The notes below the pieces were generated by a model. That model saw only the letters and a list, made by a program, of their open reading frames with translations. It searched no databases and was not told where the DNA came from. From positions 11,719 to 75,718 of IMG/VR virus record IMGVR_UViG_3300025141_012845: 64,000 nt of DNA, one strand, 5' to 3'. Shown here one piece after another: positions 37,158-52,970 of the stretch. This stretch comes from a virus. How positions within the stretch are numbered: position 1 is the first letter of the stretch; each line of letters begins with the position of its first letter. A program made the position numbers and the translations under genes.

Positions 37158-37546
37158 TTGTTATTCTCCAATATCTTTGTAGTTGAATACTCATCTATTC
37201 TATCAAAAAAAAGAACTTCTCCAGCATGTTCGGACCCAACAACCTTCTTGCCTCTCCAGTCGGAACCTACAATCATTATATCAGGAAAGTTATCTTTTAT
37301 TAAGTTTTCTAATTGTTCTGCTGAATTAAACACTAAAACTTCGTCAACATATTTAATAGACTCTAAAATAAACTTTCTGTCTTCAGATCTATTAAACGGT
37401 CTTGATTCTCCCTTATCTTTTTTTACCTTACTATCGGAGTCGATCCCTATAACTAGTCTATCTCCCAATGATTTTGCATACTTAAATAATTCAATGTGTC
37501 CTCTATGTAAGATGTCAAAACATCCATTTGTCCAAATCGTTTTCAT
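37154..37546 (-). CDS. Adenylyl/cytidylyltransferase (RfaE domain II/HldC or TagD-like)
   Basis: TNGCFDILHRGH (HxGH), VGSDW, STTKI. Confidence 0.88.
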   Translation of the reverse strand: MKTIWTNGCFDILHRGHIELFKYAKSLGDRLVIGIDSDSKVKKDKGESRPFNRSEDRKFILESIKYVDEVLVFNSAEQLENLIKDNFPDIMIVGSDWRGKKVVGSEHAGEVLFFDRIDEYSTTKILENNK

Positions 37547-38274
37547 GTTGTACCAACTCCTCTTTTCTGAACAACAACACTAGCACACTGATTTGCGAAC
37601 TCAATTGATTTTTCTATATCTCCAGTTTCAGTATATTTCACAGACAATGCTGAAACAAAGGTGTCCCCTGCTCCCGATGTGTCTTTAACCTCAACTTCTG
37701 AAACTGGGTATAGAACCTCATTGTACCGACAGCCCTTTGGACCCAAAGTTACAATTAGTTTTTTTATCATCTCCTCGCTGAGACTGTCTTTTGTTCTTCT
37801 ATATTCCTCTTCGTTTATCTTTATAAACCTTGCCTTTTCGCACCATGCGCCCAATCTTTTCTTGGTATCGAGAAACACTACATCATGCTTACTTGTCACA
37901 TACTCTATATCATCCTCAGATAAGAACCCCTTATTATAATCAGATATTACAACAGAATCGTACTTGCTAAACTTTATTAATTTAAGTTTTGAGCGCCCAT
38001 ACGATTCGTCTCCCTGATCAAGCCTCATAAACATGTGGTTTGACCTTAAATCGATAAATCTTGTTTTAGTTATATTCTGCCAATTACTGTTTGTGTGTAT
38101 GTTAGCATCAGCACCAAGCGCTTGAATGTTTCTTTGAACATTCATTGCCATTCCTGGATTCTCAACTGTACGAACTGGATTGAAAACAGGGACTGGTGCT
38201 TCTGGACAGAGCCTGGTGCAGCGACCATAATTAAACACGTCTTTACAACTTTCCCCTATTACAAGAATTTTCAT
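37543..38274 (-). CDS. PfkB-family sugar kinase (RfaE domain I/HldA-like)
   Basis: RLCPEAPVPV, ISDYNKG, DTSGAGDTF, AN..A..VVQKRG. Confidence 0.88.
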   Translation of the reverse strand: MKILVIGESCKDVFNYGRCTRLCPEAPVPVFNPVRTVENPGMAMNVQRNIQALGADANIHTNSNWQNITKTRFIDLRSNHMFMRLDQGDESYGRSKLKLIKFSKYDSVVISDYNKGFLSEDDIEYVTSKHDVVFLDTKKRLGAWCEKARFIKINEEEYRRTKDSLSEEMIKKLIVTLGPKGCRYNEVLYPVSEVEVKDTSGAGDTFVSALSVKYTETGDIEKSIEFANQCASVVVQKRGVGTT

Positions 38275-38280
38275 TGCTGT

Positions 38281-39438
38281 TTAGCCTCTAACAATCTGGC
38301 AAATGTGCTCAATCTCACTCTCTGTTAGTTCTGGATAGTTTGGAAGGAAGAACCCGTTTCTATGGATTCTATTGCTAACTTCGTCTTCAAACTTGCCATA
38401 TTCTTCGTACCAAAATGGATGTTGACCCAAATTACCTGCACTGAAGATTCTGGTTTCGACTCCGTTATCTACCAGCCTTGATACAATATCTTTTCGATGC
38501 TCTCCGCTTTCTGCTAGAGCCCCAAATGATATGGAAACAGGCTTGTGATCATACCAGTTCTGGTATTGGACATATCCTTCTAGATTCTTTGCATACGCAA
38601 CGTGGTTCTCATATCTACGTGTTGCTGCCCAATTTGCTTTGGCTACCTGTCTGATTCCTATAAATGACTGCAGATCTGTTGCTCTTAGATTCAAGCCTGT
38701 AGTAAAGAATGTAAACGGCTTATGAAAATCATCTACTTCATATTTGTTCATAAGTCGATTATACTCGCTTTCTTCCAAATCCTTTCCCCAGCCATGGCTT
38801 CGCAACATCATGAGCATTTGATAAATTTCAAAGTCGTCCGTATTAACCATTCCCCCTTCAATGGTGGATAATTGGTGTCCAAAATAAAAAGAAAATGAAG
38901 ACATATTACCAACTGTACCAACTTTTGCACCATCAGAATACTCGGCTCCCAATGCTGCACATCCATCCTCTAAGAGATAAAAGCCATACTTTTCTTGAAG
39001 CTCAAGCATTCGTTCTCTATAATGTGGCACGCCTAAAACCTGAACAAAGATTACTGCTGCAGGATTCTCCTTTTCACAAACTCTTTCTAGTTGATCTAAA
39101 TCCATGCCGAATGTTTCTTTATCTGCTCCGACCATTATTGGTTGAAGTCCAAATTGCATTACTGGAGCAACAGTTGTTACCCACCCAACCGATGGCACAA
39201 CAACCTTATCATTCTTAAGTTTGCCAGCCTTTAACGCTGCGTAAACCATTAGGAGATTGGCGGAAGATCCAGAGTTACAGAAAACTGAATACTTTGTTCC
39301 GATGTAGTCTGCCCATTTTCTCTCAAACTGTTCCGTTAAGTTTCCTTTCGTCAATCTCGGATAACTTTTAAGCCAATTACAAAGGGCATCTATGTCATCT
39401 TCATTAATAGTTTCTTTCGCTAGTGGGTATTTTATCAT
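38281..39438 (-). CDS. DegT/DnrJ-fold PLP enzyme, ColD-type NDP-4-keto-6-deoxyhexose 3-dehydratase
   Basis: NSGSSANLL; SFYFGHQLSTIEGG has His at the position of the aminotransferase Lys; LRSHGW with no Fe-S Cys cluster. Confidence 0.78.
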   Translation of the reverse strand: MIKYPLAKETINEDDIDALCNWLKSYPRLTKGNLTEQFERKWADYIGTKYSVFCNSGSSANLLMVYAALKAGKLKNDKVVVPSVGWVTTVAPVMQFGLQPIMVGADKETFGMDLDQLERVCEKENPAAVIFVQVLGVPHYRERMLELQEKYGFYLLEDGCAALGAEYSDGAKVGTVGNMSSFSFYFGHQLSTIEGGMVNTDDFEIYQMLMMLRSHGWGKDLEESEYNRLMNKYEVDDFHKPFTFFTTGLNLRATDLQSFIGIRQVAKANWAATRRYENHVAYAKNLEGYVQYQNWYDHKPVSISFGALAESGEHRKDIVSRLVDNGVETRIFSAGNLGQHPFWYEEYGKFEDEVSNRIHRNGFFLPNYPELTESEIEHICQIVRG

Positions 39439-39461
39439 TTTATTTTTCCATTGGTTTAGTT

Positions 39462-40412
39462 TTATAGATTCTCAACAATCTTAATCGGTGCTCTTTCATA
39501 AAATTTCATGTTTTCTAGTTTTGGATTTGAATATCTAATCATTGATTCCTCTAGTGTTTCCTCTATAAGAAGAAACAATGACTTTCCCAATTCGCGATAC
39601 ACTTCCTTGTCCAAATATTCATAACGATAGTTTTCTAAATGTTTCTTTTCTCTCTTTGAGGCATCATGGAAAAGTGATTTTTCATTATCCACTATGATTC
39701 CAAAGTCAATAGAAACTCTCACTCCTCCATCGTTTAAAACAGTTCTGTGTACACAAGCTTGATCGAACACACTAAGATACCCCATTCTAGCATATCCTAT
39801 GAGTTTTTTATCCTTAAATTTTTTTAATCCGTCATCATAGTTCTTTAATGGCAAAAAGAAGTCATCGGTCAAACCTTGTGGCTCAAAAAATTCCACCGTT
39901 GTTGTGGGGTCTCCTGTCAGTGGAACTGCGATTATAGCGTCTCCAACATGAGAGGCCCATGCATCAGAATGTAGTTTAGTGGTAGCAAGAGGGCGATTAT
40001 GATCTACGCTGTTCTTTGCTCCGGAAACCACCCTTATTGTGCAAGGTTGCAACGCAAGACAACTATCTAAAATTCCTGATTGTTGGAGTGCTTCAACAAC
40101 GCTTTTTTGTAAAGCATTGTATTCTACAATATTGTCCCTTTTCGGGTGAAAAGCCCCATTTTTTGTCCTATTAGGCAAATTCAATATTTCTTCTTTATAC
40201 CTGTCTAAAAAGTCATCGCAAAGGACAAATTCTTCCTCATAAAAACAACTCAAAGTTTTAAAAACATAATCAATTACACGATCAACCATGTTTTTATATA
40301 AACTGGTGGGCAACTTCGTATCAAAGTATATTCCATAGTCCCTATCAGTCTGAGACACAGATCTCATTTCACTATACAGGTCTGATCTTCCTTTTACGAC
40401 ATCATCTGCCAT
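39462..40412 (-). CDS. Putative Fe(II)/2-oxoglutarate oxygenase-like protein
   Basis: KLHSDAW (HxD)...CVHRT (H)...RVSIDF (RxS) pattern. Confidence 0.55.
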   Translation of the reverse strand: MADDVVKGRSDLYSEMRSVSQTDRDYGIYFDTKLPTSLYKNMVDRVIDYVFKTLSCFYEEEFVLCDDFLDRYKEEILNLPNRTKNGAFHPKRDNIVEYNALQKSVVEALQQSGILDSCLALQPCTIRVVSGAKNSVDHNRPLATTKLHSDAWASHVGDAIIAVPLTGDPTTTVEFFEPQGLTDDFFLPLKNYDDGLKKFKDKKLIGYARMGYLSVFDQACVHRTVLNDGGVRVSIDFGIIVDNEKSLFHDASKREKKHLENYRYEYLDKEVYRELGKSLFLLIEETLEESMIRYSNPKLENMKFYERAPIKIVENL

Positions 40413-40956
40413 TTTCGAACACCGTCTCTCTCATTGTCTTACCATTTTCATCTCTTTCTGATAAAGTGGGGTTCATAGTCGGCCAATGAATGTTTAAATC
40501 CGGATCGCTCCACCTTACAGTGATTTGATCATCTGGCCCGCTATACTTTTTAGACCATTTGTAGAAAAATACGCATTTTTCGGTTAAACAAACGTGGCCG
40601 TTCAAACACCCTGGTGGAACTAGAATCATTGTTGGTTTCTTTTCTGTAAGATGAAAAGTCTTGACTGACTTGAATGTTTGTGAGTCTTTCCTTACATCAA
40701 CAACTGCTAAAAATATTTCTCCATGCATACAACAAATCAATTTATAAGTATCGTAATCACCATGAAGACCTCTTAACACATTTTTTCTAGAAACAGTAAC
40801 TTTATCCTCAACAAACTTCGGAAATATCTCACAATCCTCATAGATCGACCAAATTTCACCTCTTTTATCTAGGAAAGGGTCTAGTTGTATTTCTATCAAA
40901 CCATCGATGTCATGACTTTTAAGGTCTTTTACATATTTCATGGAATAAATTTGCAC
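40402..40956 (-). CDS. rmlC: dTDP-4-dehydrorhamnose 3,5-epimerase family protein
   Basis: FLDKRG, SRKNVLRGLH, KLICC..GEIF.AVVDVRKDS.TF, VPPGCLNGH, WSDPDLNIHWP. Confidence 0.9.
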   Translation of the reverse strand: MQIYSMKYVKDLKSHDIDGLIEIQLDPFLDKRGEIWSIYEDCEIFPKFVEDKVTVSRKNVLRGLHGDYDTYKLICCMHGEIFLAVVDVRKDSQTFKSVKTFHLTEKKPTMILVPPGCLNGHVCLTEKCVFFYKWSKKYSGPDDQITVRWSDPDLNIHWPTMNPTLSERDENGKTMRETVFENGR

Positions 40957-41894
40957 CGCATTTCGTCGTAATCTAACTCTTCCTTTGATAAGAAGAGGTA
41001 TTTGTTGACTACACTTGTCAATCTATCTGGATCTTTAATGTACCCATCTTCATCATATGCCTCTGGATTGTGCTGCATAATGTTGTTACATTCCTCGTAG
41101 CCTAATCCGGCTTCATAAGCCTCCTTGTCATTTACAAACTCCGTCGCATCCCTATCATATAGAAGATTGTTCCACATGTTTGAGTGCTTTTCAGAGACGA
41201 AAGAGGCACACGCTGATGCACCGTCAAGGCTATGCAAATGTCTAACCTGTAGATCTTTCATTATCACCCATTTTTGTTTAACGGAAGCAGCCACATAATT
41301 AAAGGTCGATTCACTACAAAATGCCGCAAATATATCAGGATGTATTTTGTTATATTTTTTATAGATCTCGTTACTAAAAAGGTGTACATGTTGATTTATT
41401 GATTTTCCAATTGGTACTACATAATCCTCATCTTTTACTTGAATTTCTGGAGTTTGATAAACAAACTTATCAGGATCAAGAACGTGTAATGCTTCGTCCG
41501 TGTCTGTTTGAACTGCCACAATGCCATATGGACCTGACTTGAAACACTCGTATACAGAGCTTATCACATTAGTCTGATCCTCAAAACTGCACCCTGAATC
41601 AACATATAGATACCCTTCAAACTCTCCAAAATGCTTAACGCTTTCCTGTATTGCTTTGTTAAACGTGATGTTTACGGTATGTGGATCTGTGTGATAGCAG
41701 TATGAAATCTTATCTTTAAAAGTAGAATATACCTCTTTAAAACACTCTGGGCTGTTCAAACAGGAGGAGAATACGACTCTGTAGCCTTCAAAGTCTTGAT
41801 TTAACAAACTGTTTATGGATTCTATGTACCAATCCGTATTGTCTCTCTTTATCCCACATGTATTATATACTACTAACATTTTTCTGTTTTCCAA
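40938..41894 (-). CDS. Divergent GT-A (GT2-like) glycosyltransferase
   Basis: SINSLLNQDF, FNKAI and YLYVDSG at the DxD-equivalent position; island context. Confidence 0.5.
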   Translation of the reverse strand: MENRKMLVVYNTCGIKRDNTDWYIESINSLLNQDFEGYRVVFSSCLNSPECFKEVYSTFKDKISYCYHTDPHTVNITFNKAIQESVKHFGEFEGYLYVDSGCSFEDQTNVISSVYECFKSGPYGIVAVQTDTDEALHVLDPDKFVYQTPEIQVKDEDYVVPIGKSINQHVHLFSNEIYKKYNKIHPDIFAAFCSESTFNYVAASVKQKWVIMKDLQVRHLHSLDGASACASFVSEKHSNMWNNLLYDRDATEFVNDKEAYEAGLGYEECNNIMQHNPEAYDEDGYIKDPDRLTSVVNKYLFLSKEELDYDEMRCKFIP

Positions 41895-41895
41895 T

Positions 41896-42408
41896 TTATT
41901 CTCCTATGTTTAGAGATAAGATTATCTCTTTTATTATTTTTGCTTGGATTAACTCACCTTTCAATCTGAAAGATTTTATTATACCATTATAGCTTACTTT
42001 GTCGATAATTTTAATAGCCGCATCATTAATTGTCATTAATTCCATTTCTCCGTAAGCCTCTACAGAATCTTCTTTAAATTTTTGAAGGATGCCCTTGCCT
42101 ATTAGAGTTGGCAGTCTCACAACTACTCCCTTCTCGCAATGGCTAAGAAGGTATGCCTCAGCGATTTGTTTACAGTAATTGTACCAGTTTTCTTTTTCAG
42201 AATATGTTGAAACAAAGATTATTTTTTTCTCTGCGTGTTCATCAACAAACTCAGCAAACTTCTCACACTCTATCTGTTGTGTTCTCTGATCCTTATCGTC
42301 AATATTCCAAGTGTGGTATATATAAGTTTCCTCCAAAGGGTCTACACTTTCTAATAAATCTCTAAGTGCGTTTCCTAACTGGCCTCGCCCGTTTATCAGT
42401 TTAAGCAC
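41896..42408 (-). CDS. Short RmlD-like SDR sugar-nucleotide reductase/epimerase
   Basis: NGRGQLG Rossmann loop, FVST, YNYCK (YxxxK), VVRLP; only 170 aa. Confidence 0.65.
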   Translation of the reverse strand: MLKLINGRGQLGNALRDLLESVDPLEETYIYHTWNIDDKDQRTQQIECEKFAEFVDEHAEKKIIFVSTYSEKENWYNYCKQIAEAYLLSHCEKGVVVRLPTLIGKGILQKFKEDSVEAYGEMELMTINDAAIKIIDKVSYNGIIKSFRLKGELIQAKIIKEIILSLNIGE

Positions 42409-43628
42409 TAGACGAACTCCGGATGCTTTAATAACCTCTTTATATTTTGTTGTTGACCCAGAAGTTCTTTTTTAAAATCATCCACATTGTCCTTTGAACT
42501 TTCATACTGATTGTATAACTCCCAGCACATTTTATTGCTTTCGTGTGGTTTGCACAACTCTGTACATTTTGAAAACTTCTCAACATTATCAATAACATTC
42601 ATAACCGACCTTCTCTTCTCGACATTATTCCAAATATCTTTAAAAGAACTCTCCTTGAGGTCTCCGTAACTATATTGTTTATAACCTCTATGATTGGTAC
42701 AGACATAGACATGCCCGTCGGCACCAATACACGGTTGTATTTGAGACCCTAAACACTTCTTATAACTCCTGCCATAAAGGGCTGGATCATTTTCCAAATC
42801 CTGTAGTTTATACCCGTTAATCTGATACTTATCTCCAAGAATATTCTTTGCCTCAGCAAGCAGTGGTTCAACTTTATCGTTCCAGAACTTAATTTTGCGC
42901 TGAACGCCTGATTCTCGTTCTCTATTTACAATTTCTGGCTTGTATTGACAATAATCTACATCAAACTTAGAAAAGAACTTTGCAAAGTCAACTATCTCAT
43001 GATATGTGTCAGGAGTTATAACAAAACCAACTCCAATGTTTATTTTCTTATCTTTTTGGTTATTTACTTCTACTAGTTTGGTCAAGTTTAAGGCCATTTT
43101 ATCCCATGTTTGCCCCTTCTTAGCCCGTCTAACGTTGTTGTACGTTTCCGGCGTTCCTGCGTCCACTGAGAACCTTACCCACGTCATATTATCAACTAAT
43201 GTATCGAACAAGTCCCATTTGTCAAGAAGAGTCCCGTTTGTGAACATTCCCATTTTAATTGAGTTCTCTCCCAAATACTGAATTGCCTCTTTTAAATGTG
43301 GATTCAATGTTGGTTCTCCGCCGCCTGTCCAATTTACGGCACGAACATCCATATCAACAAAATCCCTGCAAACACTCATAAGCATGTCCTTATTCATGAT
43401 TGAACGGTCAAAGGTCTCAAGGTTCTTTGATTCTGGTAAGTGAATATAAGACGATATGCAGAAATAGCACCCGTGATTACATGCATTACTTGGATCAATC
43501 TCAACCAAGACAGGAGGAGATGTCCCCTTTTCAAAAAATTCAATCACCCTATCTGCATTAGCAACAACTTTTGCTTGAGGGTTGAAAATGTTGGTTCCTT
43601 TTGAAAGTATTTTATCGAGACTCTTCAT
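42408..43628 (-). CDS. Radical SAM protein with a SPASM/twitch domain
   Basis: CNHGCYFC, TGGGEPTL, FTNG; C-terminal C...IGADGHVYVC...GDL...SF.DIW...C...C. Confidence 0.9.
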   Translation of the reverse strand: MKSLDKILSKGTNIFNPQAKVVANADRVIEFFEKGTSPPVLVEIDPSNACNHGCYFCISSYIHLPESKNLETFDRSIMNKDMLMSVCRDFVDMDVRAVNWTGGGEPTLNPHLKEAIQYLGENSIKMGMFTNGTLLDKWDLFDTLVDNMTWVRFSVDAGTPETYNNVRRAKKGQTWDKMALNLTKLVEVNNQKDKKINIGVGFVITPDTYHEIVDFAKFFSKFDVDYCQYKPEIVNRERESGVQRKIKFWNDKVEPLLAEAKNILGDKYQINGYKLQDLENDPALYGRSYKKCLGSQIQPCIGADGHVYVCTNHRGYKQYSYGDLKESSFKDIWNNVEKRRSVMNVIDNVEKFSKCTELCKPHESNKMCWELYNQYESSKDNVDDFKKELLGQQQNIKRLLKHPEFV

Positions 43629-44544
43629 TTTTCTTCCCTAACCACTCTAAAAAGAATTTAGTGGGATCTTCAAAATATACACGAATAACATCATCAAAGT
43701 ATTTTTTTGCAGCGCTCGCCCTATTCTCTAATTCTTCCAAAGGTAAGTTATAGACTTCCTTAAGCTTCTCTGCGACCTTGTCAGGTGTCATTTCAATATC
43801 ACAAATCCTAAAAACAAAACTAGTATCGTAATAATCTTCTCCTACAAGATAATAGTCCAAGTCAGAGATTAGAATAGGGACTCGATTATAATAACAACTT
43901 TCCAAAAGTCTTACACTATCAATGCCTGATCCTCTCGGGCACAGCGATAAGCCATTTGCAAGCATTGTATCAATATAGTCTTCTTGAACTTTAGATCCTA
44001 TTTCGGAAGGCCCAGCCCATGTTCTATTTACGTGCATTTCTTTTTCTAATTCCGGAGATGTATGGAGTGCATACACCATGATTGCTCTGCATCCATGATT
44101 CATATATCCTCTAAACCCGAATTTTTTATTATCAGGAAACTCAAACTCCTCACTTCTGTTATTGACAATATCTAACAATAAGTGAGAAAAAGTTGGTCTA
44201 GCGAATAGTTTTTGTATGTTCGAATAAAGTTTTACTGGCCCCATTGTTGTAATAATAGAATTATGCAGCCATCCTGGAATAGGCATCCCTCCTTCTCCTT
44301 CTACATCACATATGTGCTTGTCTTCATTTCCTTCAAAGTACTTAAAAGTCTTAGAAGTATAGCGATTAAAGTGGTCATTAGGTATTTGACCCATGTAGAA
44401 GTAATCCGCTTCCTCTGGAGAGACTAACTCACAGTAGTCTTCGATACCTTTCTTGCTTAAAGGCACTGTATTGAAATATATCTCTGTGTCATCATGAACA
44501 TGTTCACGAGCGTTCGGATAAACATATAGTTTTATTTTATTCAT
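43612..44544 (-). CDS. Exostosin-family (GT47) glycosyltransferase
   Basis: KLYVYP, PEEADYF, Y...M....LSLCPRG.G..SVRLLES....RVPILISD. Confidence 0.8.
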   Translation of the reverse strand: MNKIKLYVYPNAREHVHDDTEIYFNTVPLSKKGIEDYCELVSPEEADYFYMGQIPNDHFNRYTSKTFKYFEGNEDKHICDVEGEGGMPIPGWLHNSIITTMGPVKLYSNIQKLFARPTFSHLLLDIVNNRSEEFEFPDNKKFGFRGYMNHGCRAIMVYALHTSPELEKEMHVNRTWAGPSEIGSKVQEDYIDTMLANGLSLCPRGSGIDSVRLLESCYYNRVPILISDLDYYLVGEDYYDTSFVFRICDIEMTPDKVAEKLKEVYNLPLEELENRASAAKKYFDDVIRVYFEDPTKFFLEWLGKKNEESR

Positions 44545-44557
44545 GTGTGTTCCTCTT

Positions 44558-45400
44558 TTAAAAATTTATTTTTGGTTCTTTGTCCGGAAAAGACATTTTG
44601 TTTAGATTAACATCTTTTACTCTTTTCTTTAAGTCCTCGTAAGATATATCGTATTCTAAATCAAGATTGTTGGCGCATGCTGATAAAAGAGCGCAGTAAA
44701 CTTTATAATCGTAATCTTCATTGCTTAATTCACCCTCAAAAGGTGGGAAGGCTGTTATGCCGCAGTTTGTAAGTTCTTTGATTTTTTCACACCCTTTTAG
44801 CCAAAAATAAAACGCCATATAGTGATCGATATATCTTGCCTTAAAGACAGAAGGGTATATAACACCACCTAATTTATCTTCTATAAAATTGCGAGTTATA
44901 ACTGGGAATCTCGCGCAAGCAACCTTAGTTATATCACTAAATCTAGAATAAAAATTAGTATAATTCTTATCTGGTTGAAAGTTTAGCGGAATATTAAACA
45001 ATTTAGTTGCTAAAGATTCCACCCTTTGCCCGTCCTCCGTATATTGCTCTGGAATCATCAAGATAAAATCTCTTTCCTGTACAATCATACGCAGAATGAC
45101 ATCATACTTAAATTGTTCCCCGTAAAGCATCCCGTCGGTGGCCGGATGAACAATTCTCCCCTTTGACATTTTATACATCTTGTTATAGCCAGCAACACTA
45201 CCTACAGTCTCTTCTTCTTTAATCCACGTCACGCCTTCAATTTCAGGATCAAGTGGCGAATATACTAAAATCTCATAGGTAAACTTTTTAGGGCCGCTAT
45301 CCCATTTAATCTCCTGAATGGACTTTACTACTCTGTGGCAGAACTTTTCGTTTGGCCTTCTGTCATTTAAGGTAGGTAGTAAGAATGATACATCAACCAT
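44558..45400 (-). CDS. GT2-like glycosyltransferase
   Basis: VSFLLPT, YEILVYS, GSVAGYNK.YKMSKG, Y.D near the C-terminus. Confidence 0.6.
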   Translation of the reverse strand: MVDVSFLLPTLNDRRPNEKFCHRVVKSIQEIKWDSGPKKFTYEILVYSPLDPEIEGVTWIKEEETVGSVAGYNKMYKMSKGRIVHPATDGMLYGEQFKYDVILRMIVQERDFILMIPEQYTEDGQRVESLATKLFNIPLNFQPDKNYTNFYSRFSDITKVACARFPVITRNFIEDKLGGVIYPSVFKARYIDHYMAFYFWLKGCEKIKELTNCGITAFPPFEGELSNEDYDYKVYCALLSACANNLDLEYDISYEDLKKRVKDVNLNKMSFPDKEPKINF

Positions 45401-47231
45401 CGTCTTTGTTAAAAATGCTAGGCATTGGAGGATTTTTTGAGATCTCTAATGCCTCTACCTCCATATTAGAATAGAATTCCTCTCTTGGCAAGTAGGGATA
45501 CATATCTTCAATAGGAGTGCTCCATCCAACAATTTTAGGCTCATAAACGTGATATTCGTGACAGTTAACATCACAAACTATTGGGCCATCACTATCTAAA
45601 AACTCTCTGACCTGTTTTCTAACAACATCATAGTCTTCACCGCTATTAATAGACATTGTCTTAACCCCATACGCATCTACAATCTTTAAGAAGTCCGGTG
45701 GGTTATAGCCCTTTGGCCCGCACGCTTCACTTCTACCTTCAAAGTTAACCTCTTGAAATGCTTTCGTAATTCCATAAATATGGTTATTTAAAACAATGGT
45801 CTTAAGATTCACATTATAGTTCAATAATGTCTGCAACTCTTGAATATTCATATTAAATCCGCCATCACCGATGACGCAAACAACGTTCTGAGTTTCATCC
45901 GCTGCAAAACAAGAACCAAGTCCACCAGCAAAAGAGAATCCCATTGGAGAGTTTCCATTATTGGTAATATATCTTTGGCCTGTTTTCGTCTCAAATGCAT
46001 GATTTAAAACAACAATATTGCCTCCACAGTCACCAATTAAGATATCGTTATCCTTCATCTCCTCTGAAAGTATTCTAGCGAAAGCATAAGGATGCACATA
46101 TCTTTGAGTGTCATACATCTCTTTAATGACTGGATCATATTTTTCTTTCCATCCATTCACTCTATTGACCCATCCGGAAAAGTCTGGTAGACTTTGATTT
46201 CTTTCTCTGGCTCTATCCAAAAGCATGTTTATAAAAACTTTTGCATCAGAATAAATGCACTCATCAAACGGAAGTTGTTGAAGCTTCTTCTGGAGTGCTG
46301 GTTTGTCAACATCGACCATATACTTTTTAGCGCCTCTTGCAAAAGTCTCCGGTGTTCCTCCGGTGATTCTACCAGAAATTCTACTACCGATTGCTAAAAG
46401 AAGGTCAGAGTTTTGAATTCCAAAATTACGGCCTGCTCCACCATATGTTCCAATTCTGCCACCATAGTATTCAAAGTCAGAACAAATAATATCTAATGCA
46501 TTCCAAGTTGGAAAACACGGAACTTTTAATTCTCTAGCCAGTTCCAGTATCTCTTTCTCTGCTCCCGCAAGTCGAACTCCTTGTCCGATCATCAAGCATG
46601 GACGCTCGCTACCAGCCAAATCATCAAGATATTTGTCAATTTGCTCGTTAATCTTTTCAGTATCAAAAGAGGTTTTTAACCCACAATCGTATCCTAACAA
46701 CCCTTCTGGTTCAATCTCTGCTTTAGCAACATCAATTGGAATATCAAGAAGTACAGGTCCGGGTCTACCGGTTGTCGCAACATGAATAGCCTTTTCTAGT
46801 TCATAACGAATACTATCTGGATCATCAACAAGTTTAGCATATTTTGTTATTGGCTCCACAATACTGACAATATCAGTTTCCTGAAATCCAATCTGTCTAA
46901 TAGACTTATCTGGCCTCATATATTGTGTTTTGATTTGTCCGGTAATAAAGACACAAGGAACTGAGTCATAAAAACAGTTTCCAATCGGCGTAACAAAGTT
47001 CATCCCGCCTGGTCCACTAGTTGCTATCGCAACGCCAAACTTCCCGGAAATCTTAGCATATCCTTCTGCGGCAAAACCTCCGGCTTGTTCATGCATAACC
47101 GCTACATACTTTGTTTTATCTGTGCGAGTAAACGCATCTATCAAATGTCCATTTGCTGCGCCATATACAACAAAAACATCTTTAATCCCTTGATCTCCGA
47201 TATAATCTATTACGTAGTCTGCTAAATTCAT
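45393..47231 (-). CDS. ThDP-dependent carboligase of the acetolactate synthase family (YerE-like)
   Basis: HEQAGGFAAEGY, TSGPGGMN, GDGGFNMNIQEL...NN, and C-terminal PIEDMYPYLPREEF typical of polysaccharide-locus ThDP enzymes. Confidence 0.85.
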   Translation of the reverse strand: MNLADYVIDYIGDQGIKDVFVVYGAANGHLIDAFTRTDKTKYVAVMHEQAGGFAAEGYAKISGKFGVAIATSGPGGMNFVTPIGNCFYDSVPCVFITGQIKTQYMRPDKSIRQIGFQETDIVSIVEPITKYAKLVDDPDSIRYELEKAIHVATTGRPGPVLLDIPIDVAKAEIEPEGLLGYDCGLKTSFDTEKINEQIDKYLDDLAGSERPCLMIGQGVRLAGAEKEILELARELKVPCFPTWNALDIICSDFEYYGGRIGTYGGAGRNFGIQNSDLLLAIGSRISGRITGGTPETFARGAKKYMVDVDKPALQKKLQQLPFDECIYSDAKVFINMLLDRARERNQSLPDFSGWVNRVNGWKEKYDPVIKEMYDTQRYVHPYAFARILSEEMKDNDILIGDCGGNIVVLNHAFETKTGQRYITNNGNSPMGFSFAGGLGSCFAADETQNVVCVIGDGGFNMNIQELQTLLNYNVNLKTIVLNNHIYGITKAFQEVNFEGRSEACGPKGYNPPDFLKIVDAYGVKTMSINSGEDYDVVRKQVREFLDSDGPIVCDVNCHEYHVYEPKIVGWSTPIEDMYPYLPREEFYSNMEVEALEISKNPPMPSIFNKDDG

Positions 47232-47233
47232 TA

Positions 47234-48154
47234 CTAATCCTTACGAGTTACAGTGTTTGGTGTTAGACTATGATTCGTTGGAAAGCCCTGATCTGTTTCA
47301 TACTTCCACTTTGAATCGCCTAACAACTTTTCAAGTTCTTCATCTTTGATTTCATAGAAATTTTCCTGTGCTGGAAAAACTCCAGTTCGGACTTCTTCCG
47401 CATATTGTTGCAGGGCCGACTGCATTGCTTTACCTGCTTCACAATATCGCTTTACGAACTTAGATTTAAATTCCCAAAACAGCCCCATAAGATCGTGGAA
47501 GATGACCAATTGTCCATCTACCTTATCTCCTGCTCCAATTCCATAAACAGGGATAGAAAGCTCGTTAGCAATAATACCAGCAGGTTCTCTTGGCATTGCT
47601 TCCAAAAGAAGAAATGAACACCCGGCCTCTTGCAGTTTCAAAGCCTGTTCTAAAATAACTTCTGTTTGCTTTGCTGTCTTGCCCTGTACTCTGTACCCTC
47701 CTAGTTTAGCACGAGTATGTGGTGTCAGGCCTAAGTGGCTCATAACTAAGATCCCGGCATCTGCTATTGATTTAATTCTGTCAACCATCGCGCCCTCAAC
47801 CTTAACGCAATCCATTCCTGACCTTACAAATCTACCGGCATTTATAACTGCTTCTTCGTTTGATACTTGATATGACATGTACGGCATGTCACCAATAAGA
47901 AAAGCGTTGTTTGTTCCTCTAGCGACTGCTTCGCAGTGAGAAATCATATTATCCATTGTGACTGGTATTGTTGTCTTGTGTCCTAATGTAGTCATGCCTA
48001 GCGAATCTCCAACCAAGATACAGTCGACACCTGCGCCATCTGAAATCCTTGATTGAGGATAGTCATAGGCGGTTGTCAACACCGTTTTTCTTCCCTCTTC
48101 CTTTTGTCTTCTTAATTTTAATACTGTTACCTTATTCTTATCGTTTGCGGCCAT
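47234..48154 (-). CDS. panB: 3-methyl-2-oxobutanoate hydroxymethyltransferase family protein
   Basis: TAYDY, LVGDSLGM, GDMPYMSY, KVEG, HLGLTP, LLE, GIGAG, DGQ...HD; catalytic motifs look intact. Confidence 0.93.
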   Translation of the reverse strand: MAANDKNKVTVLKLRRQKEEGRKTVLTTAYDYPQSRISDGAGVDCILVGDSLGMTTLGHKTTIPVTMDNMISHCEAVARGTNNAFLIGDMPYMSYQVSNEEAVINAGRFVRSGMDCVKVEGAMVDRIKSIADAGILVMSHLGLTPHTRAKLGGYRVQGKTAKQTEVILEQALKLQEAGCSFLLLEAMPREPAGIIANELSIPVYGIGAGDKVDGQLVIFHDLMGLFWEFKSKFVKRYCEAGKAMQSALQQYAEEVRTGVFPAQENFYEIKDEELEKLLGDSKWKYETDQGFPTNHSLTPNTVTRKD

Positions 48155-48172
48155 TTTTTTCTCCTTTTAATT

Positions 48173-49693
48173 TCAATCACCTAATGTTTTTCTTTTTAAC
48201 TTAATCTTAGTTGTGTTTTCCATATTTTCTCTTGCTTTTGAGCCAAATTTCGTCTCCAAAAGGGATAAATAATCTCTATTGGTATGATACTTCATCCACG
48301 CTTTATCTCGAAATTCAAGAATCTGAGATGCTTTAAGATTTTCATTTGATAAATTAAGAGTTTCATATGAGTGCTGGCTATATCCCTCATATCTGTTAGG
48401 TAAAGCGACACCGCTCTTCTTTGCATGTAGATGAAGGGGGCTGCCTGGATATGCCATTGCGCAATACATATTTGTCATCTCTGACAAATTGTCTAAAGCA
48501 AAATTTAACGTGTCATTCATAGATTCCATTGTGTCCATTGGTAGTCCAAAAATATAATTCGCACCGATATTGATACCGGCAGATCTCATTGTTTGAAGTA
48601 TATCATAGATCTTTACTTCTTTAAATCCATCTTTATGAATTTCTTTTCTTAAAGTTTGATTTGGGTTTTCAATTCCCAATCCAAGCCAGTTTACTCCAGC
48701 CTTTTTAAGCGCGTCTAAATACTTTGGCTTACAGGTGTCGATTCGAGAATATGCCCATATATTAAAATCATATCCTCTTTCCGCTATCATATCACATATC
48801 TTCATAAAGTGTCGAGGATTAAGAACAAACAATTCATCAGCAATCTTAATATTTTTTATATTGTTCTCGGCAAAATAATCAAACTGCTTTATGATAAAGT
48901 TGGGATCCCAATATCTGAAGATGTTACTGTCTTCGCTTGAAATATCCTCGCCAGAATCTGTTCTATTGATTATATTAATCATGCAGAATGAACAAGTAAA
49001 AGGGCACCCTAAACTTGTATAAAGTGCTGCAAAGGGAGCGTTGTCTGTATTGTTACTCCATGAATGCCAACCGGAGGTTCTATATTTTGAAAAGTCCGGT
49101 AATAAGTTCCATGCCATTCCTGGTAAGTCTTCTTGGAGTCTTGATCTGGGAACTATGCCTTCAGGCTCATTTAAGACTGCGTTTCCATCTTCGTCTTTAA
49201 ATCCCAGCCCTTTCACCTTTTTAAGAAGGCTCGAATCATCCAAGTTCTCTACACGCAACAAGTTACTAATCGTGTATACTCCCTCGTTTTGACAAACCAT
49301 ATCAATAGAAGGCTCTGTTAAGACTTCTTTTGGAACCGCCGCTACATGTGCGCCTACAAAGAGAATCTTAATTGTAGGATCTCGAAGTTTTACCATCTCC
49401 GCAGTCTCAACTGCTCCGCACATATTCTGACTTGATGCGCTTGGCTGTTGGCCATATACAACAAAGCAGACTATGCGGGCATTGTATTCTTCAATAACCT
49501 TAGCAGATTCTTCTGTTGTTAACTGTTCTGCTTCGCAATCTAAGATTCTTGGTTCGAATCCTCTAGTGACACAATGATTGGCAAGCATCGCTGCCCAAAT
49601 TGGAGGCTCAATAGCAGAATGATTTTTGCTTAACCCTTGATAGATCTTTTTTGATCCATTGGGATGTACAAAAAGCACATCTATTTGTCTCAT
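48173..49693 (-). CDS. Cobalamin-binding radical SAM enzyme (class B methyltransferase-like)
   Basis: N-terminal B12-binding domain (EPPIW, VGAH, GVYT); TSLGCPFTCSFC; GLGIE; IFGLP; YPGSPL. Confidence 0.88.
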   Translation of the reverse strand: MRQIDVLFVHPNGSKKIYQGLSKNHSAIEPPIWAAMLANHCVTRGFEPRILDCEAEQLTTEESAKVIEEYNARIVCFVVYGQQPSASSQNMCGAVETAEMVKLRDPTIKILFVGAHVAAVPKEVLTEPSIDMVCQNEGVYTISNLLRVENLDDSSLLKKVKGLGFKDEDGNAVLNEPEGIVPRSRLQEDLPGMAWNLLPDFSKYRTSGWHSWSNNTDNAPFAALYTSLGCPFTCSFCMINIINRTDSGEDISSEDSNIFRYWDPNFIIKQFDYFAENNIKNIKIADELFVLNPRHFMKICDMIAERGYDFNIWAYSRIDTCKPKYLDALKKAGVNWLGLGIENPNQTLRKEIHKDGFKEVKIYDILQTMRSAGINIGANYIFGLPMDTMESMNDTLNFALDNLSEMTNMYCAMAYPGSPLHLHAKKSGVALPNRYEGYSQHSYETLNLSNENLKASQILEFRDKAWMKYHTNRDYLSLLETKFGSKARENMENTTKIKLKRKTLGD

Positions 49694-49711
49694 TATAAAC
49701 CTCCAATAAAA

Positions 49712-50635
49712 TCAGTAGTTTGCATACCACGGCTCGTCAAGCATTTCATACACACTTACAAGCTGTTGTATTCCCTGATCTAAATCATATTGACATTCAA
49801 AGCCTTTATTGTAAAACTTCTCACTACTGACAACATAATCTCTAACATCTGGATCTTTCGTAAACTCAGCGCATAAGAGTTCTAGCGGTGTGTGTTCTGA
49901 GATCTTCCTTGCTAGGTCGTATTTGTTCATGTTTAAGGCGTCGTTTCCAACGTTATATGTCTCATTCTTACAATCATCCCAATTGTCCAATGCAAATCTA
50001 TACGCTCTGCAGACATCTTGAATATGCACGTAATTTCTCATAAATTCCTTTTCATATAAAACAAGGACGCGGTCTTTGACTGCCTTTAAAACAAAATTGT
50101 TCACAAGCAAATCAGTCCTCATTCTTGAGGAAGGTCCAAACACTGTTGCAAGTCTAAATGTAACATGATTTTCAATATTTTTAAATACTTTTTCTGCTTC
50201 AACTTTAGTTTCTCCATAAAGAGATACTGGATTTAAAGGAGACTCCTCTGTGCAGACTTCTCCCTTTGAAGTGCCATAGCCAGAGTTTGTGCAAGGATAT
50301 ATAACAAGTTGATCTTGTGATTTGTTCTCTGCGATAACCCTATTTGCTTTATAATTGATATTCCATGCTGCTTCAGGATCTCTCTTACACAAAGGAAACC
50401 CCACAAGCGCAGCCAATGGGATGATAGCATCAGATTTATTGACAAGTCTTAAAAGTTTGGGAGTTTCTCTAACGTCCCCTTTTACAAAATTAAAATTTGG
50501 ATGTCCCGCATATCTCAATAAAGATAAATTATCATACATCAAATTATCATAAACTGTTACTTTGTTATCCTTAACAAGATGATCGATAAGTTCACTGCCA
50601 ATATAGCCTGCGCCACCTGTAATTAATATATTCAT
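49712..50635 (-). CDS. NAD-dependent sugar epimerase/dehydratase (extended SDR)
   Basis: ITGGAGYIGS, LAALVG, YGETK (YxxxK), RLATVFG. Confidence 0.9.
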   Translation of the reverse strand: MNILITGGAGYIGSELIDHLVKDNKVTVYDNLMYDNLSLLRYAGHPNFNFVKGDVRETPKLLRLVNKSDAIIPLAALVGFPLCKRDPEAAWNINYKANRVIAENKSQDQLVIYPCTNSGYGTSKGEVCTEESPLNPVSLYGETKVEAEKVFKNIENHVTFRLATVFGPSSRMRTDLLVNNFVLKAVKDRVLVLYEKEFMRNYVHIQDVCRAYRFALDNWDDCKNETYNVGNDALNMNKYDLARKISEHTPLELLCAEFTKDPDVRDYVVSSEKFYNKGFECQYDLDQGIQQLVSVYEMLDEPWYANY

Positions 50636-50636
50636 T

Positions 50637-50936
50637 CTACCACTCCAATTTTCCAGTTAAAACATCTTTAAGCATCACCCAGTCGCACGCTTTTGCCCAC
50701 AATGGCCTTTTCCATGCTGCTGGCTTGTTCTTTTCAAAATACAGATGACCTGTCCATGCAAACGGATAAACCACAAAGGGCACTAATGGCAAAAGAAGCC
50801 AAGTTTGACTTAATAATGCATACAACAGCACTGTAACTGTTGCCAATTGCCCAACTACATGCAGTCTTCTGCATATCTTGTTTTGATGTAAAGTCAAATA
50901 ATGCTCATAATATTGTTTAAACGTAATGTTATTCAT
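50637..50936 (-). CDS. DUF962/Mpo1-like membrane protein
   Basis: YL..HQNKICRRLHVVG...FAWTGHLYFEKNKPA; likely start is ATG 50936 (MNNITF) rather than 51008. Confidence 0.8.
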   Translation of the reverse strand: MNNITFKQYYEHYLTLHQNKICRRLHVVGQLATVTVLLYALLSQTWLLLPLVPFVVYPFAWTGHLYFEKNKPAAWKRPLWAKACDWVMLKDVLTGKLEW

Positions 50937-51336
50937 CCCAGCTAATCTCCCAATCTTTGAATTCTGCTGCCAAGCAATCAATTTTATAATCTTTTCGTCC
51001 TCCAGCAACTTCTTGAATCTTATTCTTTGCAGTGTTGCGAATACCGTTCAATCCGTGTGTTAACTCAAGATCATTACCTTCTGCAATTCCTTTCCTATAA
51101 TTGGACTCATTGTGCCATATGTGAAGGTTCATTTGAGATAACACAACAATTGCTCTAATCACTTGTGCATCTATTTTAGCAGAATTTTCTTTTAATATTA
51201 AATTAATATCGTGAACAATGTCAGAAATCTCTTGTACATACTCAGATTTGTGCTCTGATATGAAAACTTCTTTCAATTGTGCTATCGATAATCTGTCTAC
51301 AAGTTCGGATAAGGTTGGTAAATATTTTCTTTTCAT
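50929..51336 (-). CDS. Helical hypothetical protein of glycan loci
   Basis: SELVDRLSIAQLK...LSQMNLHIWHNE...N..R...KNKI pattern; coupled within the operon. Confidence 0.6.
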   Translation of the reverse strand: MKRKYLPTLSELVDRLSIAQLKEVFISEHKSEYVQEISDIVHDINLILKENSAKIDAQVIRAIVVLSQMNLHIWHNESNYRKGIAEGNDLELTHGLNGIRNTAKNKIQEVAGGRKDYKIDCLAAEFKDWEISWDE

Positions 51337-52970
51337 TAGTTGCTCGCAATAAATTGATCAAAATATGGTTTATATTTTTGGAAGTTACTTCCGAAGAGGT
51401 GTGCATACTTGTAGAAGATTCTTGCTTCTTCTTTTCTTTGATCTAAATTGCGCTCCTGTTGAGAACGGCCTCCAGAAAGATATAACCCAACTGTGTCTTC
51501 TACCTTGTTAAAACTATACCCGGCAGAAACTGCTCTCAACCACATATCCCAATCATCAGCAAAATTACATTCCTCATTATCAAAAAAACCACAAGCATCA
51601 TGTATCTCCCTCTTCCACAGGGGCATTGGACCCGGCAAACATTTGATCATGTTTTCTCTTGAAAATGGATGTGTCGAGTGATCAAATACTTTACCGTCTG
51701 AGGTATTGTTATTATACGTTTCATTTGGATTGTCAGTCAGCAAAACTTCTCCATAAACTAAACCTACATCGCTCTTCTCAATATCATCAAGAAGAATCTC
51801 TAAACAATCGTTACGTCTTCTATCATCAATGAATCCAAAAGTTAGATATTTTGCACTTGCCATTTGAATGCCAATGTTTATGCCCTCTGTTGGAAGCGCT
51901 CTATAATCTAGTCGATGATATACAATGTTATCATACTTCTCCATGTATTTTTCAACTATTTCTTTTTCTTTTCCTGGTGAATCTGCATCGACAAAGATCA
52001 ATTCACATTTGTCAAAAATAGTTTGGCTTGTTATGTCTTCTAAGAAGCCTTCTAGGAACTCCTCTCCCTTATAAAAGGTGCTTAATATCGATATCGAATA
52101 TTCAGTTTCTTCTTTGGATTTCTCAGAGCTTCTTATAATTCCTTCAACCAACTTTCCAACTTCCTCTCTCTTCTCCGTCATGTAGTCGATCAACTCTTCA
52201 CCTTTTAGACTGAACCAGGGCTCCTGTGTTGCTCCAATTAAGTTGTTTGCCACAACTGACATACCCATCATTCTAGCCTCGACAACAACTCTTGATAGAG
52301 TTTCTGGTGTCTGTGGGAAGAACACGAACGTTTTGTTTGCACCCAATTTCTCTAGGAACGAAAAATAAGAACTATCTGAGACCAAGTCATACTCATACCC
52401 CTTGTGTTCGCAATAAGCGACTGTTCTGGAGGTGTTTTTATGAGATATATTAGAATTTAAAACTGAATACTTGTCAGCCTTTTCGTTCTTCGAAAGATCT
52501 CGTAACTTTTCTAAAACTCTTTTAGACCACAAGTTCCCACCAACGCTCGATATATTGTCGAGACCTAAATTAGATTCCGCTATACCTTTGTGAAAATTAG
52601 ATTGGCATATGACCGCTTTAGCATTTTTATAAAAATTATAATTCAGAAGACTGCTTTTTGAAGCAATAAAATTATTATAGTCTGCTGGGTTTCTAGTGAG
52701 AAGATATTTGTGATCATGCTCATAAATTAAATATTGCAGCTCATCCGCTAAATAATTTTTGCACTCTTGACTTAGATTGCAAAAGTTCGAGACAATATAA
52801 AAATTATCCTTCTTCTCCTTTAAAAACTCAACAGTAACAAACTGAGACTGGACCTTGCCTAATTGAAAACCCTTTTGATTTAAAATTTGAAGAAGCTCGT
52901 CGTCGTTAAGTTCTCCACCTCCAAGAATTTGATCAGAAAAATAATCTGAAATTAAGCAGACCTTACTCAT
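51336..52970 (-). CDS. Bifunctional glycosyltransferase (GT-B N-terminus plus GT2 C-terminus)
   Basis: GGGE and ETLSRVVVEARMMG (GT-B); ISILST...QT.F...ELIFVD, NIGI..A, IDD, ADDWDMWLR (GT2). Confidence 0.85.
   Translation of the reverse strand: MSKVCLISDYFSDQILGGGELNDDELLQILNQKGFQLGKVQSQFVTVEFLKEKKDNFYIVSNFCNLSQECKNYLADELQYLIYEHDHKYLLTRNPADYNNFIASKSSLLNYNFYKNAKAVICQSNFHKGIAESNLGLDNISSVGGNLWSKRVLEKLRDLSKNEKADKYSVLNSNISHKNTSRTVAYCEHKGYEYDLVSDSSYFSFLEKLGANKTFVFFPQTPETLSRVVVEARMMGMSVVANNLIGATQEPWFSLKGEELIDYMTEKREEVGKLVEGIIRSSEKSKEETEYSISILSTFYKGEEFLEGFLEDITSQTIFDKCELIFVDADSPGKEKEIVEKYMEKYDNIVYHRLDYRALPTEGINIGIQMASAKYLTFGFIDDRRRNDCLEILLDDIEKSDVGLVYGEVLLTDNPNETYNNNTSDGKVFDHSTHPFSRENMIKCLPGPMPLWKREIHDACGFFDNEECNFADDWDMWLRAVSAGYSFNKVEDTVGLYLSGGRSQQERNLDQRKEEARIFYKYAHLFGSNFQKYKPYFDQFIASN

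Follow-up and report, generated by a model that had tools for sequence, protein, structure and literature searches.

A PanB-family enzyme paired with a YerE-like carboligase in viral sugar loci: a candidate route to a carbon-branched deoxy-heptose

The stretch of DNA considered here (the window) comprises 64,000 nucleotides (nt) of a virus, positions 11,719 to 75,718 of IMG/VR record IMGVR_UViG_3300025141_012845, and carries a sugar and glycosyltransferase (GT) gene array at 36476–55484 in which a PanB-family hydroxymethyltransferase adjoins a thiamine diphosphate (ThDP) dependent enzyme. The array consists of 21 open reading frames (ORFs), all on the minus strand, with intergenic gaps of −80 to +23 nt. 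Within it lie four consecutive minus-strand genes encoding a short-chain dehydrogenase/reductase (SDR), a B12-binding radical S-adenosylmethionine (SAM) enzyme, PanB and the ThDP enzyme, spaced by 18, 18 and 2 nt. This succession, with the SDR termed an epimerase, and its setting among GTs had been proposed in an earlier reading of the DNA (the original prediction) and is borne out by ORF calls together with Pfam and NCBIfam searches, which confirm all the families named there; a GT2, two GT4 and a weak GT47-like protein flank the four genes. A baseplate wedge protein, a late sigma factor and PhoH place the window in a tailed-phage context, while a gene for a T4-type Gp23 capsid protein is present, and psbA missing, in two long relatives; the source is taken to be a marine T4-like phage. 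A DNA-level search of GenBank phages with the window sequence returned zero matches. The source record is 75.7 kb long with a CheckV completeness of 26%, implying a genome of ~290 kb; full genome size is uncertain, as a relative with the same cluster is 186 kb at a CheckV completeness of 100%, which puts either the estimate or the relationship of the two in doubt.

The ThDP enzyme contains the TPP_enzyme_N, M and C domains (Pfam) and retains its cofactor motifs, HEQ47 and GDG455-X-NN. Against the acetolactate synthase (ALS) family TIGR00118 it scores 374 bits with a cut-off of 538, and it stays under the cut-off for all 54 families matched. Its top PDB match is JanthE (8RPH, 327 bits), with acetohydroxyacid synthase (AHAS) structures reaching at most 228 bits; a phage enzyme of another lineage, B2, scores 433 bits against 8RPH, with AHAS at or below 244 bits over the phage enzymes compared. 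JanthE is a YerE-like enzyme that joins 2-oxo-acid donors, including 4-hydroxy-2-oxovalerate, to ketones (PMC12188165; PMC12247030). In a tree of 114 rows, in which cellular sequences were labelled by their neighbouring genes, all 12 ilvC/H/D-adjacent enzymes fall with Escherichia coli IlvI and 20 others in an AHAS clade (100% support) that holds no phage enzyme. All phage ThDP enzymes belong to the other clade (69 rows, 100% support), many of whose members sit in sugar clusters and none of which is ilv-linked. Furthermore, of the positions with at least 93% conservation across 33 AHAS, 26 carry other residues in the phage and YerE-like enzymes, among them the hallmark QHQM segment, the MH of MHG, the Asp of FDD and the Trp of QW. 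Judged by sequence, the window enzyme is thus YerE-like, as originally proposed, and no acetolactate synthase. Extended relatives (P0152, P0167, P0243, P0169, P0192 and L052) have YerE-like domains fused to a radical SAM-SPASM, an N-terminal cupin, a GNAT or a HAD domain. Since SPASM, cupin and HAD partners occur as separate genes in the window cluster or in type B loci, these fusions suggest functional links, while PanB–ThDP gene fusions, which would be Rosetta-stone evidence, are absent among these relatives.

PanB itself scores 280 bits against TIGR00222, for which the equivalog cut-off is 207.55, and keeps both the catalytic residues (D45, S46, D84, K112, E114, H136 and E181 in E. coli) and the metal ligands. 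Rather than grouping with housekeeping enzymes, a possibility raised in the original prediction, it falls in a separate ThDP-paired clade (FastTree support 100; IQ-TREE SH-like approximate likelihood ratio test (SH-aLRT) 99.4). This clade joins the phage PanBs, the giant-virus groups, group D, L201 and the PanB of L049, a member of the Bacteriovoracales, and stands apart from 22 of the 25 cellular PanBs sampled. The sole unpaired member is that of an actinomycete (L143), which has no ThDP gene within 10 kb and is therefore uninformative. Throughout the clade V179L and V214I occur and P132 is lost, beside the catalytic Glu; most members also have I200Y, and the phage clade Q142H. Among the phage PanBs, partners of ThDP lineage A and of B2 intermingle as sister pairs, indicating that the ThDP/dehydratase cassette has been exchanged while PanB was retained. 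A phosphonate cluster (phosphoenolpyruvate (PEP) mutase, phosphonopyruvate decarboxylase and B12 radical SAM enzyme) was also considered for these genes and ruled out, given a full-length PanB match at E 6e-98 and a ThDP middle domain typical of AHAS/YerE enzymes.

The pairing extends well beyond the window. A PanB-seeded scan recovered 40 viral loci with PanBs of 73–87% identity, and a ThDP gene adjoins PanB in every one of them, which rules out chance juxtaposition. The adjacent ThDP enzymes represent three lineages (A, B1 and B2), lie on either side of PanB and are surrounded by varied sugar genes. ThDP-seeded scans with the three lineages gave 125 loci, 79 of them with PanB, always adjacent: 75 with a gap of 3–119 nt and four with ~750 nt, six loci having the two genes on opposite strands. 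Adjacency hence holds across differing gene orders, strands and ThDP lineages. One group of the ThDP-seeded loci comes from giant viruses, with three contigs of 140–159 kb that each hold 5–8 capsid paralogues of nucleocytoplasmic large DNA viruses. Prasinovirus-like contigs (L233–L282, e.g. L235, L246 and L250) carry a YerE-like ThDP gene and a DegT-family dehydratase gene of the His type described below, many with PanB adjacent. Prasinoviruses have been reported with "acetolactate synthase", "aminotransferase" and, in some strains, PanB (PMC5371798; PMC5454428; PMC6851583), and these "amino-acid synthesis" genes are probably the PanB/ThDP sugar module. In one type B2 phage locus (L020, 13062–18589) ThDP, PanB, SDR and dehydratase genes are followed by those for a 4,6-dehydratase, an MptE/Maf-like protein, NeuB, a cytidine monophosphate (CMP)-sugar synthetase, a class III aminotransferase and a methyltransferase, pointing to a nonulosonic-acid pathway beside the branching module in type B2 phages.

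The original prediction had called for panB to be sought beside YerE-like genes in bacteria as well as phages; among 80 cellular loci, PanB is directly followed by the ThDP gene in one, that of a marine Bacteriovoracales single-cell genome (L049). This glycan locus also holds a GmhA/GmhB-like gene, a SPASM radical SAM gene and an ABC transporter, with a GNAT gene adjoining PanB, and the genome contains neither a second PanB nor a PanC, its one PanB being inside the glycan cluster. Elsewhere in the ThDP clade another 2-oxo-acid supplier is seen: a Candidatus Roizmanbacteria metagenome-assembled genome (MAG) has MhpF- and MhpE-like genes directly upstream of an 853-residue YerE-like ORF (L077, 300–5701). 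This acetaldehyde dehydrogenase/aldolase set amounts to an erwiniose-type arrangement in a bacterium of the candidate phyla radiation. GenBank phage proteins gave no YerE-like matches, the remaining ThDP matches being AHAS in records resembling bacterial DNA. The only credible PanB among them, that of Microcystis phage MaAM05, is beside panC and suf/isc genes, a housekeeping-type context and a different module. Its panB, panC, sufBCDS and iscU lie at the end of a 274-kb record (L157, MW495066.1 254372–273160) and may be either true auxiliary genes of the phage or assembled host DNA. Many short, unannotated GenBank "phage" fragments in the OR84xxxx–OR85xxxx range (Listeria, Staphylococcus, Salmonella and Escherichia) show PanB/AHAS matches at host-gene identity and look like bacterial sequence under phage names.

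In the literature, PanB and "acetolactate synthase" would by default be taken as ordinary auxiliary genes that boost host pantothenate/coenzyme A (CoA) and branched-chain amino acids. A PanB above the equivalog cut-off with intact catalytic residues agrees with this, and viral pantoate transferase has been so interpreted in a marine virome (PMC8940887) and in prasinovirus papers (PMC6851583; PMC5371798). However, the ThDP enzyme fails AHAS membership on score, phylogeny and residues, both genes belong to a sugar array that runs in one direction with gaps of −80 to +23 nt, and the PanB–ThDP–dehydratase linkage is strict over unrelated viruses. ALS and PanB do not, moreover, catalyse consecutive steps in one pathway, so that their adjacency would lack a metabolic rationale. 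PanC, PanD, PanE/ApbA, IlvC (ketol-acid reductoisomerase, KARI), IlvD and the ALS small subunit occur neither anywhere on the 75.7-kb record nor on three relatives, including the type A contig of 186 kb that is rated 100% complete. Most of them had been noted as missing from the window in the original prediction, which named panC, panE or ilvC elsewhere in the genome, together with a PanB of housekeeping type, as counter-evidence. Taken with the separate PanB clade and the non-AHAS ThDP enzyme, this absence makes the vitamin B5 reading highly improbable, in line with what had first been argued.

The acceptor is indicated by two further enzymes. A DegT-family protein in the array matches ColD (2GMS) at 184 bits, compared with 133 bits for E1 (3BCX), and has a His aligned with ColD His188, a site recognised from the aligned ColD mutants H188N and H188K. 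This His marks it as a 3-dehydratase, and on sequence grounds the protein is of the His (ColD) type that had been expected here. His-type DegT genes accompany the ThDP gene in 34/34 phage loci, 21/21 sugar-context cellular loci and all 102 further viral loci with a DegT match. YerE and ErwE act on acceptors of just this type, 3-deoxy-4-keto sugars (PMC9306805).

For the window SDR the leading PDB match is 6VO6 (280 bits, the next match reaching 84), which we take to be Cj1427, a 2-oxoglutarate-recycling guanosine diphosphate (GDP)-heptose C4-dehydrogenase. In vitro, Cj1427 followed by a pyridoxal phosphate (PLP) dependent C3-dehydratase yields GDP-3-deoxy-4-keto-heptose (PMC10680097). The SDR is therefore most likely a C4-dehydrogenase that would create the keto-sugar, rather than the tailoring epimerase first suggested. 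The scaffold, too, is probably a heptose instead of the 3,6-dideoxyhexose originally envisaged, as suggested by the HldA- and HldC-like genes and PHROG matches at one end of the array, the SDR match, the RmlC-like epimerase and the published Cj1427/C3-dehydratase route (PMC10680097). The closest cellular cluster, in a Nitrospiraceae MAG beside fliW (L043, 1755–17579; SDR 48% and ThDP 64% identical to the phage enzymes), agrees with a heptose scaffold in its content: a GHMP kinase, a nucleotidyltransferase (NTP-transferase), a Cj1427-like SDR, a His-type DegT, a class I/II aminotransferase in the donor-supplier slot and a large GT/methyltransferase. Two B12 radical SAM genes flank its YerE-like gene, and the cluster may be a flagellin glycosylation island making a related branched heptose.

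The array is most likely a phage pathway for a nucleoside diphosphate (NDP) activated, carbon-branched deoxy-heptose and for its transfer to a glycan. A heptose phosphate would be activated by the PfkB kinase, HAD phosphatase and HldC-like nucleotidyltransferase, oxidised at C4 by the Cj1427-like SDR and stripped of its 3-hydroxyl by the ColD-type enzyme to give NDP-3-deoxy-4-keto-heptose. In parallel, PanB would add a hydroxymethyl group to a 2-oxo acid of the host, with 2-oxoisovalerate the likeliest substrate, and so form a 4-hydroxy-2-oxo acid, most likely ketopantoate. Decarboxylation of this donor by the YerE-like enzyme and addition of the resulting acyl anion to the C4 ketone would then leave C4 as a tertiary alcohol whose branch is of the 3-hydroxy-2,2-dimethylpropanoyl type. 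Tailoring and transfer of the sugar would follow, through the two radical SAM enzymes, the RmlC-like epimerase, oxygenase-like proteins and GTs. The individual reactions, the nature of the donor and the glycan target, whether on the virion or on the host surface, are all predicted from gene content.

That PanB makes a 4-hydroxy-2-oxo acid, probably ketopantoate, which the ThDP enzyme grafts onto C4 of a 3-deoxy-4-keto NDP-heptose, is a reading we favour with some confidence, as a role of PanB in donor supply is the simplest account of the conserved PanB–ThDP adjacency. Ketopantoate belongs to the 4-hydroxy-2-oxo acids. YerE-like enzymes have been shown to use cluster-made 4-hydroxy-2-oxo acids as donors, and in the erwiniose cluster an aldolase makes 4-hydroxy-2-oxopentanoate, which ErwE ligates to the keto-sugar while refusing pyruvate (Steitz et al., 2022; PMC9306805). 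The same branched-sugar route might instead run with the paired PanB acting on another 2-oxo acid, e.g. pyruvate or 2-oxobutyrate, so that the donor would be 4-hydroxy-2-oxobutanoate or a monomethyl analogue, with later methylation by the B12 radical SAM enzyme, whose gene adjoins PanB. Fixed changes near the catalytic residues, at positions at least 85% conserved in 24 cellular PanBs (V179L, loss of P132, I200Y, G116A/Y and, in the phage clade, Q142H), would suit such a shift, and ErwE accepts 4-hydroxy-2-oxobutanoate (PMC9306805). Yet the catalytic and metal ligands are all kept with a score above the equivalog cut-off, 2-oxoisovalerate is abundant in the host, and the B12 radical SAM enzyme has non-methylating best families (HpnJ and BchE) and is missing from types B1 and B2; this variant is unlikely.

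It may also be asked whether PanB supplies the ThDP donor at all, given that adjacency leaves the direction of flux unstated. An unusual sugar could be made while ketopantoate served as acceptor in an AHAS-like condensation, 2-oxo acids being the natural acceptors of AHAS-family enzymes, or while another enzyme attached a pantoyl-type acyl or ether substituent, for which the GNAT adjoining PanB in L049 and the existence of GNAT–ThDP fusions might be cited. The His-type 3-dehydratase, however, accompanies ThDP in every locus with a DegT match and thereby indicates that a keto-sugar is the acceptor, the Trp on the acceptor side of AHAS is missing, and Pfam finds no acyltransferase among the window proteins, leaving this arrangement somewhat less probable than the change of 2-oxo acid.

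Several points weigh against the favoured route from PanB through ketopantoate to the branched heptose. PanB passes its equivalog cut-off and keeps its catalytic residues, so that it could from its own sequence be an ordinary ketopantoate synthase. It is absent from 46 of the 125 ThDP-seeded loci, as well as from the Nitrospiraceae cluster and L046, and the many same-lineage relatives without it make PanB an optional add-on. Many viral loci are near-duplicates or repeats of contigs from the first scan, hence independent events are far fewer than the counts. Adjacency of PanB and ThDP shows coupling and does not give the direction of flux. The window contains no identified YerF/ErwF-type side-chain reductase, its single SDR resembling a C4-dehydrogenase, whereas in type B loci a short SDR directly follows PanB. 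The trees are FastTree or fast IQ-TREE reconstructions with SH-aLRT and some long branches, and the ThDP tree includes authentic YerE, ErwE and JanthE sequences in none of its rows. Finally, the second PDB match of the ThDP enzyme, 5AHK, is presumably PpYerE, an identification that, like that of 6VO6, is our assumption.

The B12 radical SAM enzyme combines an N-terminal B12-binding domain (PF02310) with PF04055 and the motif C230PFTCSFC. Methylation, the chemistry that the original prediction named for class B enzymes, is one option only. Its best families, HpnJ and BchE, are non-methylating and lie far below their cut-offs, and its PDB matches, AprD4 and TokK, are weak (26–34 bits), so either methylation or a rearrangement is a possibility. 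In cells it accompanies lineage A ThDP enzymes even where PanB is lacking. The SPASM radical SAM enzyme has a weak PDB match to DesII, and its relative in P0152 is fused to a YerE-like ThDP enzyme.

All members of the array are given in Table 1. Five of them (orf316, orf318, orf170, orf280 and orf135) returned nothing from PHROGs, Pfam or NCBIfam. The last, of 135 residues, is second only to PanB in conservation across type A loci; the Mpo1-like ORF overlaps it by 80 nt from a TTG codon, though its translation probably begins at a later codon. On the same strand, downstream of the sugar cluster and next to a baseplate-wedge homologue, lie two giant ORFs of 3142 residues (10610–20038) and 2761 residues (23928–32213), possibly fibre or structural proteins and as such potential glycosylation targets.

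Table 1. Genes of the sugar and glycosyltransferase array, with window positions and the matches on which each description rests (aa, amino acids; 2OG, 2-oxoglutarate; PMP, pyridoxamine phosphate; TM, structural similarity score).
Feature	Position	Strand	Basis
Cupin, first gene of heptose-activation quartet	36476..36847	-	phrog_7851, E 2.8e-57; 62-74% identity in related loci
Small HAD-type phosphatase, putatively GmhB-like	36828..37157	-	phrog_1238, E 1.9e-26; 20- and 4-nt overlaps with neighbours
HldC-like heptose-1-phosphate nucleotidyltransferase	37154..37546	-	TIGR02199 rfaE_dom_II, E 3e-35, below cut-off
HldA-like PfkB heptose-7-phosphate kinase	37543..38274	-	TIGR02198 rfaE_dom_I, E 8e-36, below cut-off
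ColD-type PMP-dependent NDP-4-keto-sugar 3-dehydratase (DegT family)	38281..39438	-	ColD 2GMS best PDB match, 184 bits; His at ColD His188
Possible PhyH/2OG-Fe(II)-oxygenase-fold protein, lead only	39462..40412	-	No Pfam or PHROG match; Atlas structure match TM 0.71, cluster with PhyH in 13% of members
RmlC-like sugar 3,5-epimerase (cupin)	40402..40956	-	PF00908, E 6.5e-40
Possible GT2-like glycosyltransferase, lead only	40938..41894	-	Atlas feature matches: clusters with Glycos_transf_2 in 39-68% of members; conserved in type A loci
170-aa protein, no family match	41896..42408	-	Pfam, NCBIfam, PHROGs
Radical SAM + SPASM enzyme	42408..43628	-	PF04055 + PF13186; C50xxxCxxC + 8 more Cys
Weak GT47/RXYLT1-like putative glycosyltransferase	43612..44544	-	Pfam E 7e-4, 4e-3, below cut-offs
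280-aa protein, no family match	44558..45400	-	Pfam, NCBIfam, PHROGs
YerE-like ThDP carboligase, lineage A, proposed C4-branching enzyme	45393..47231	-	Three TPP domains; JanthE 8RPH best PDB match
PanB-family hydroxymethyltransferase, ThDP-paired subfamily, proposed donor 2-oxo-acid synthase	47234..48154	-	TIGR00222, 280 bits
B12-binding radical SAM enzyme	48173..49693	-	PF02310 + PF04055; C230xxxCxxC
SDR, probable NDP-heptose C4-dehydrogenase	49712..50635	-	PDB 6VO6, 280 bits
Mpo1-like (DUF962) putative Fe(II) dioxygenase	50637..51008	-	PF06127, E 9e-29
135-aa protein	50929..51336	-	78-88% identity in type A loci
GT2 glycosyltransferase	51336..52970	-	PF00535
GT4-like glycosyltransferase, weak	52963..54225	-	PF00534, E 1.4e-4, below cut-off
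GT4 glycosyltransferase	54225..55484	-	PF00534, E 1e-12

Viral pantoate transferase has been reported to outnumber all other auxiliary genes for vitamins and cofactors in the virome of an oceanic oxygen-minimum zone, where it was read as a CoA boost (PMC8940887), and the prasinovirus "acetolactate synthase" and PanB have been classed under amino-acid/vitamin synthesis or "role unknown" (PMC5371798; PMC6851583). In oceanic viruses, what has been tallied as "panB" and "acetolactate synthase" probably serves glycan synthesis instead of the making of vitamins or amino acids. A wider proposal, for which we see the chances as evenly balanced, is that a dedicated PanB subfamily forms the standard side-chain supplier for YerE-like branching in viruses of the ocean, T4-like phages and prasinovirus-like giant viruses alike, with the top marine "vitamin" gene and the prasinovirus ALS/aminotransferase/PanB set being glycan genes. 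The window product would then be a 12-carbon sugar not described before, a 3-deoxy-heptose whose C4 bears a branch derived from 3-hydroxy-2,2-dimethylpropanoyl and containing a quaternary carbon, with the sugar modified further by the two radical SAM enzymes. If this holds, two widely counted viral gene classes would have to be reread: in place of metabolic reprogramming they would concern glycans of the virion or host surface, with bearing on adsorption, host range and immune evasion. The scheme of acyl-branched sugars would also gain a donor enzyme with another fold and a side chain containing a quaternary carbon. No paper was found in the literature that links PanB to YerE-like enzymes or reinterprets these viral genes, and a 2025 review lists viruses as an unexplored source of YerE-like enzymes (PMC12247030). 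The module offers new ThDP carboligases for bulky donors, which are sought for chiral tertiary alcohols (PMC12247030), and prasinoviruses in culture that have PanB (OlV7, OtV-2) or lack it (OlV1) allow the two states to be compared.

Among known systems, the erwiniose cluster of Pectobacterium atrosepticum (ErwI/ErwJ aldolase-dehydrogenase, ErwE ThDP enzyme and ErwF reductase), with the "unifying scheme" published for acyl-branched sugars (PMC9306805), offers a close parallel. In both a cluster-encoded maker of a 4-hydroxy-2-oxo acid is found or, for the phage, proposed, followed by YerE-like ligation to C4 of a 3-deoxy-4-keto NDP-sugar that a PMP-dependent 3-dehydratase provides (predicted here), within a surface-glycan locus. 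The donor enzyme differs, being a PanB-family hydroxymethyltransferase (PEP-mutase/isocitrate lyase fold, methylene-tetrahydrofolate dependent) in the phage and a pyruvate aldolase in erwiniose synthesis. The predicted phage branch has a quaternary gem-dimethyl carbon and the scaffold is probably a C4-oxidised heptose instead of a 6-deoxyhexose, while the virus-borne set lacks a recognised ErwF-like reductase and includes two radical SAM enzymes. With YerE/YerF of yersiniose A synthesis in Yersinia pseudotuberculosis and with JanthE the phage system shares a three-domain ThDP carboligase, predicted in the phage to accept ketones as they do, and a 3-dehydratase partner, and 8RPH is the best solved relative of all phage ThDP lineages tested. 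The donor of YerE, however, is pyruvate, JanthE has CDG where the phage enzymes have the canonical GDG, and the latter are ~35–45% identical to cellular relatives outside lineage A.

The capsular heptose pathway of Campylobacter jejuni (Cj1427, HS:5 C3-dehydratase and Cj1430-type epimerase; PMC10680097) has putative counterparts in the window for activation of the heptose as an NDP-sugar, its oxidation at C4 without 6-deoxygenation, removal of the 3-hydroxyl by a PLP/PMP-dependent enzyme and RmlC-like epimerisation. Its last step is carried out by a C4 reductase, whereas in the phage a carbon nucleophile would be added to the 4-ketone by the ThDP carboligase, and the nucleotide carrier is probably different (HldC-like in the phage, HddC in C. 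jejuni). Housekeeping PanB (TIGR00222; E. coli 1M3U) shares with the phage enzyme its fold, catalytic and metal-binding residues and ~45% identity. In contrast to it, the phage PanB belongs to a separate clade, has no panC, panD or panE, carries changes at conserved positions near the active site and a 39-residue C-terminal tail, and is joined by an adjacent ThDP carboligase in all sampled clade members except that of the actinomycete.

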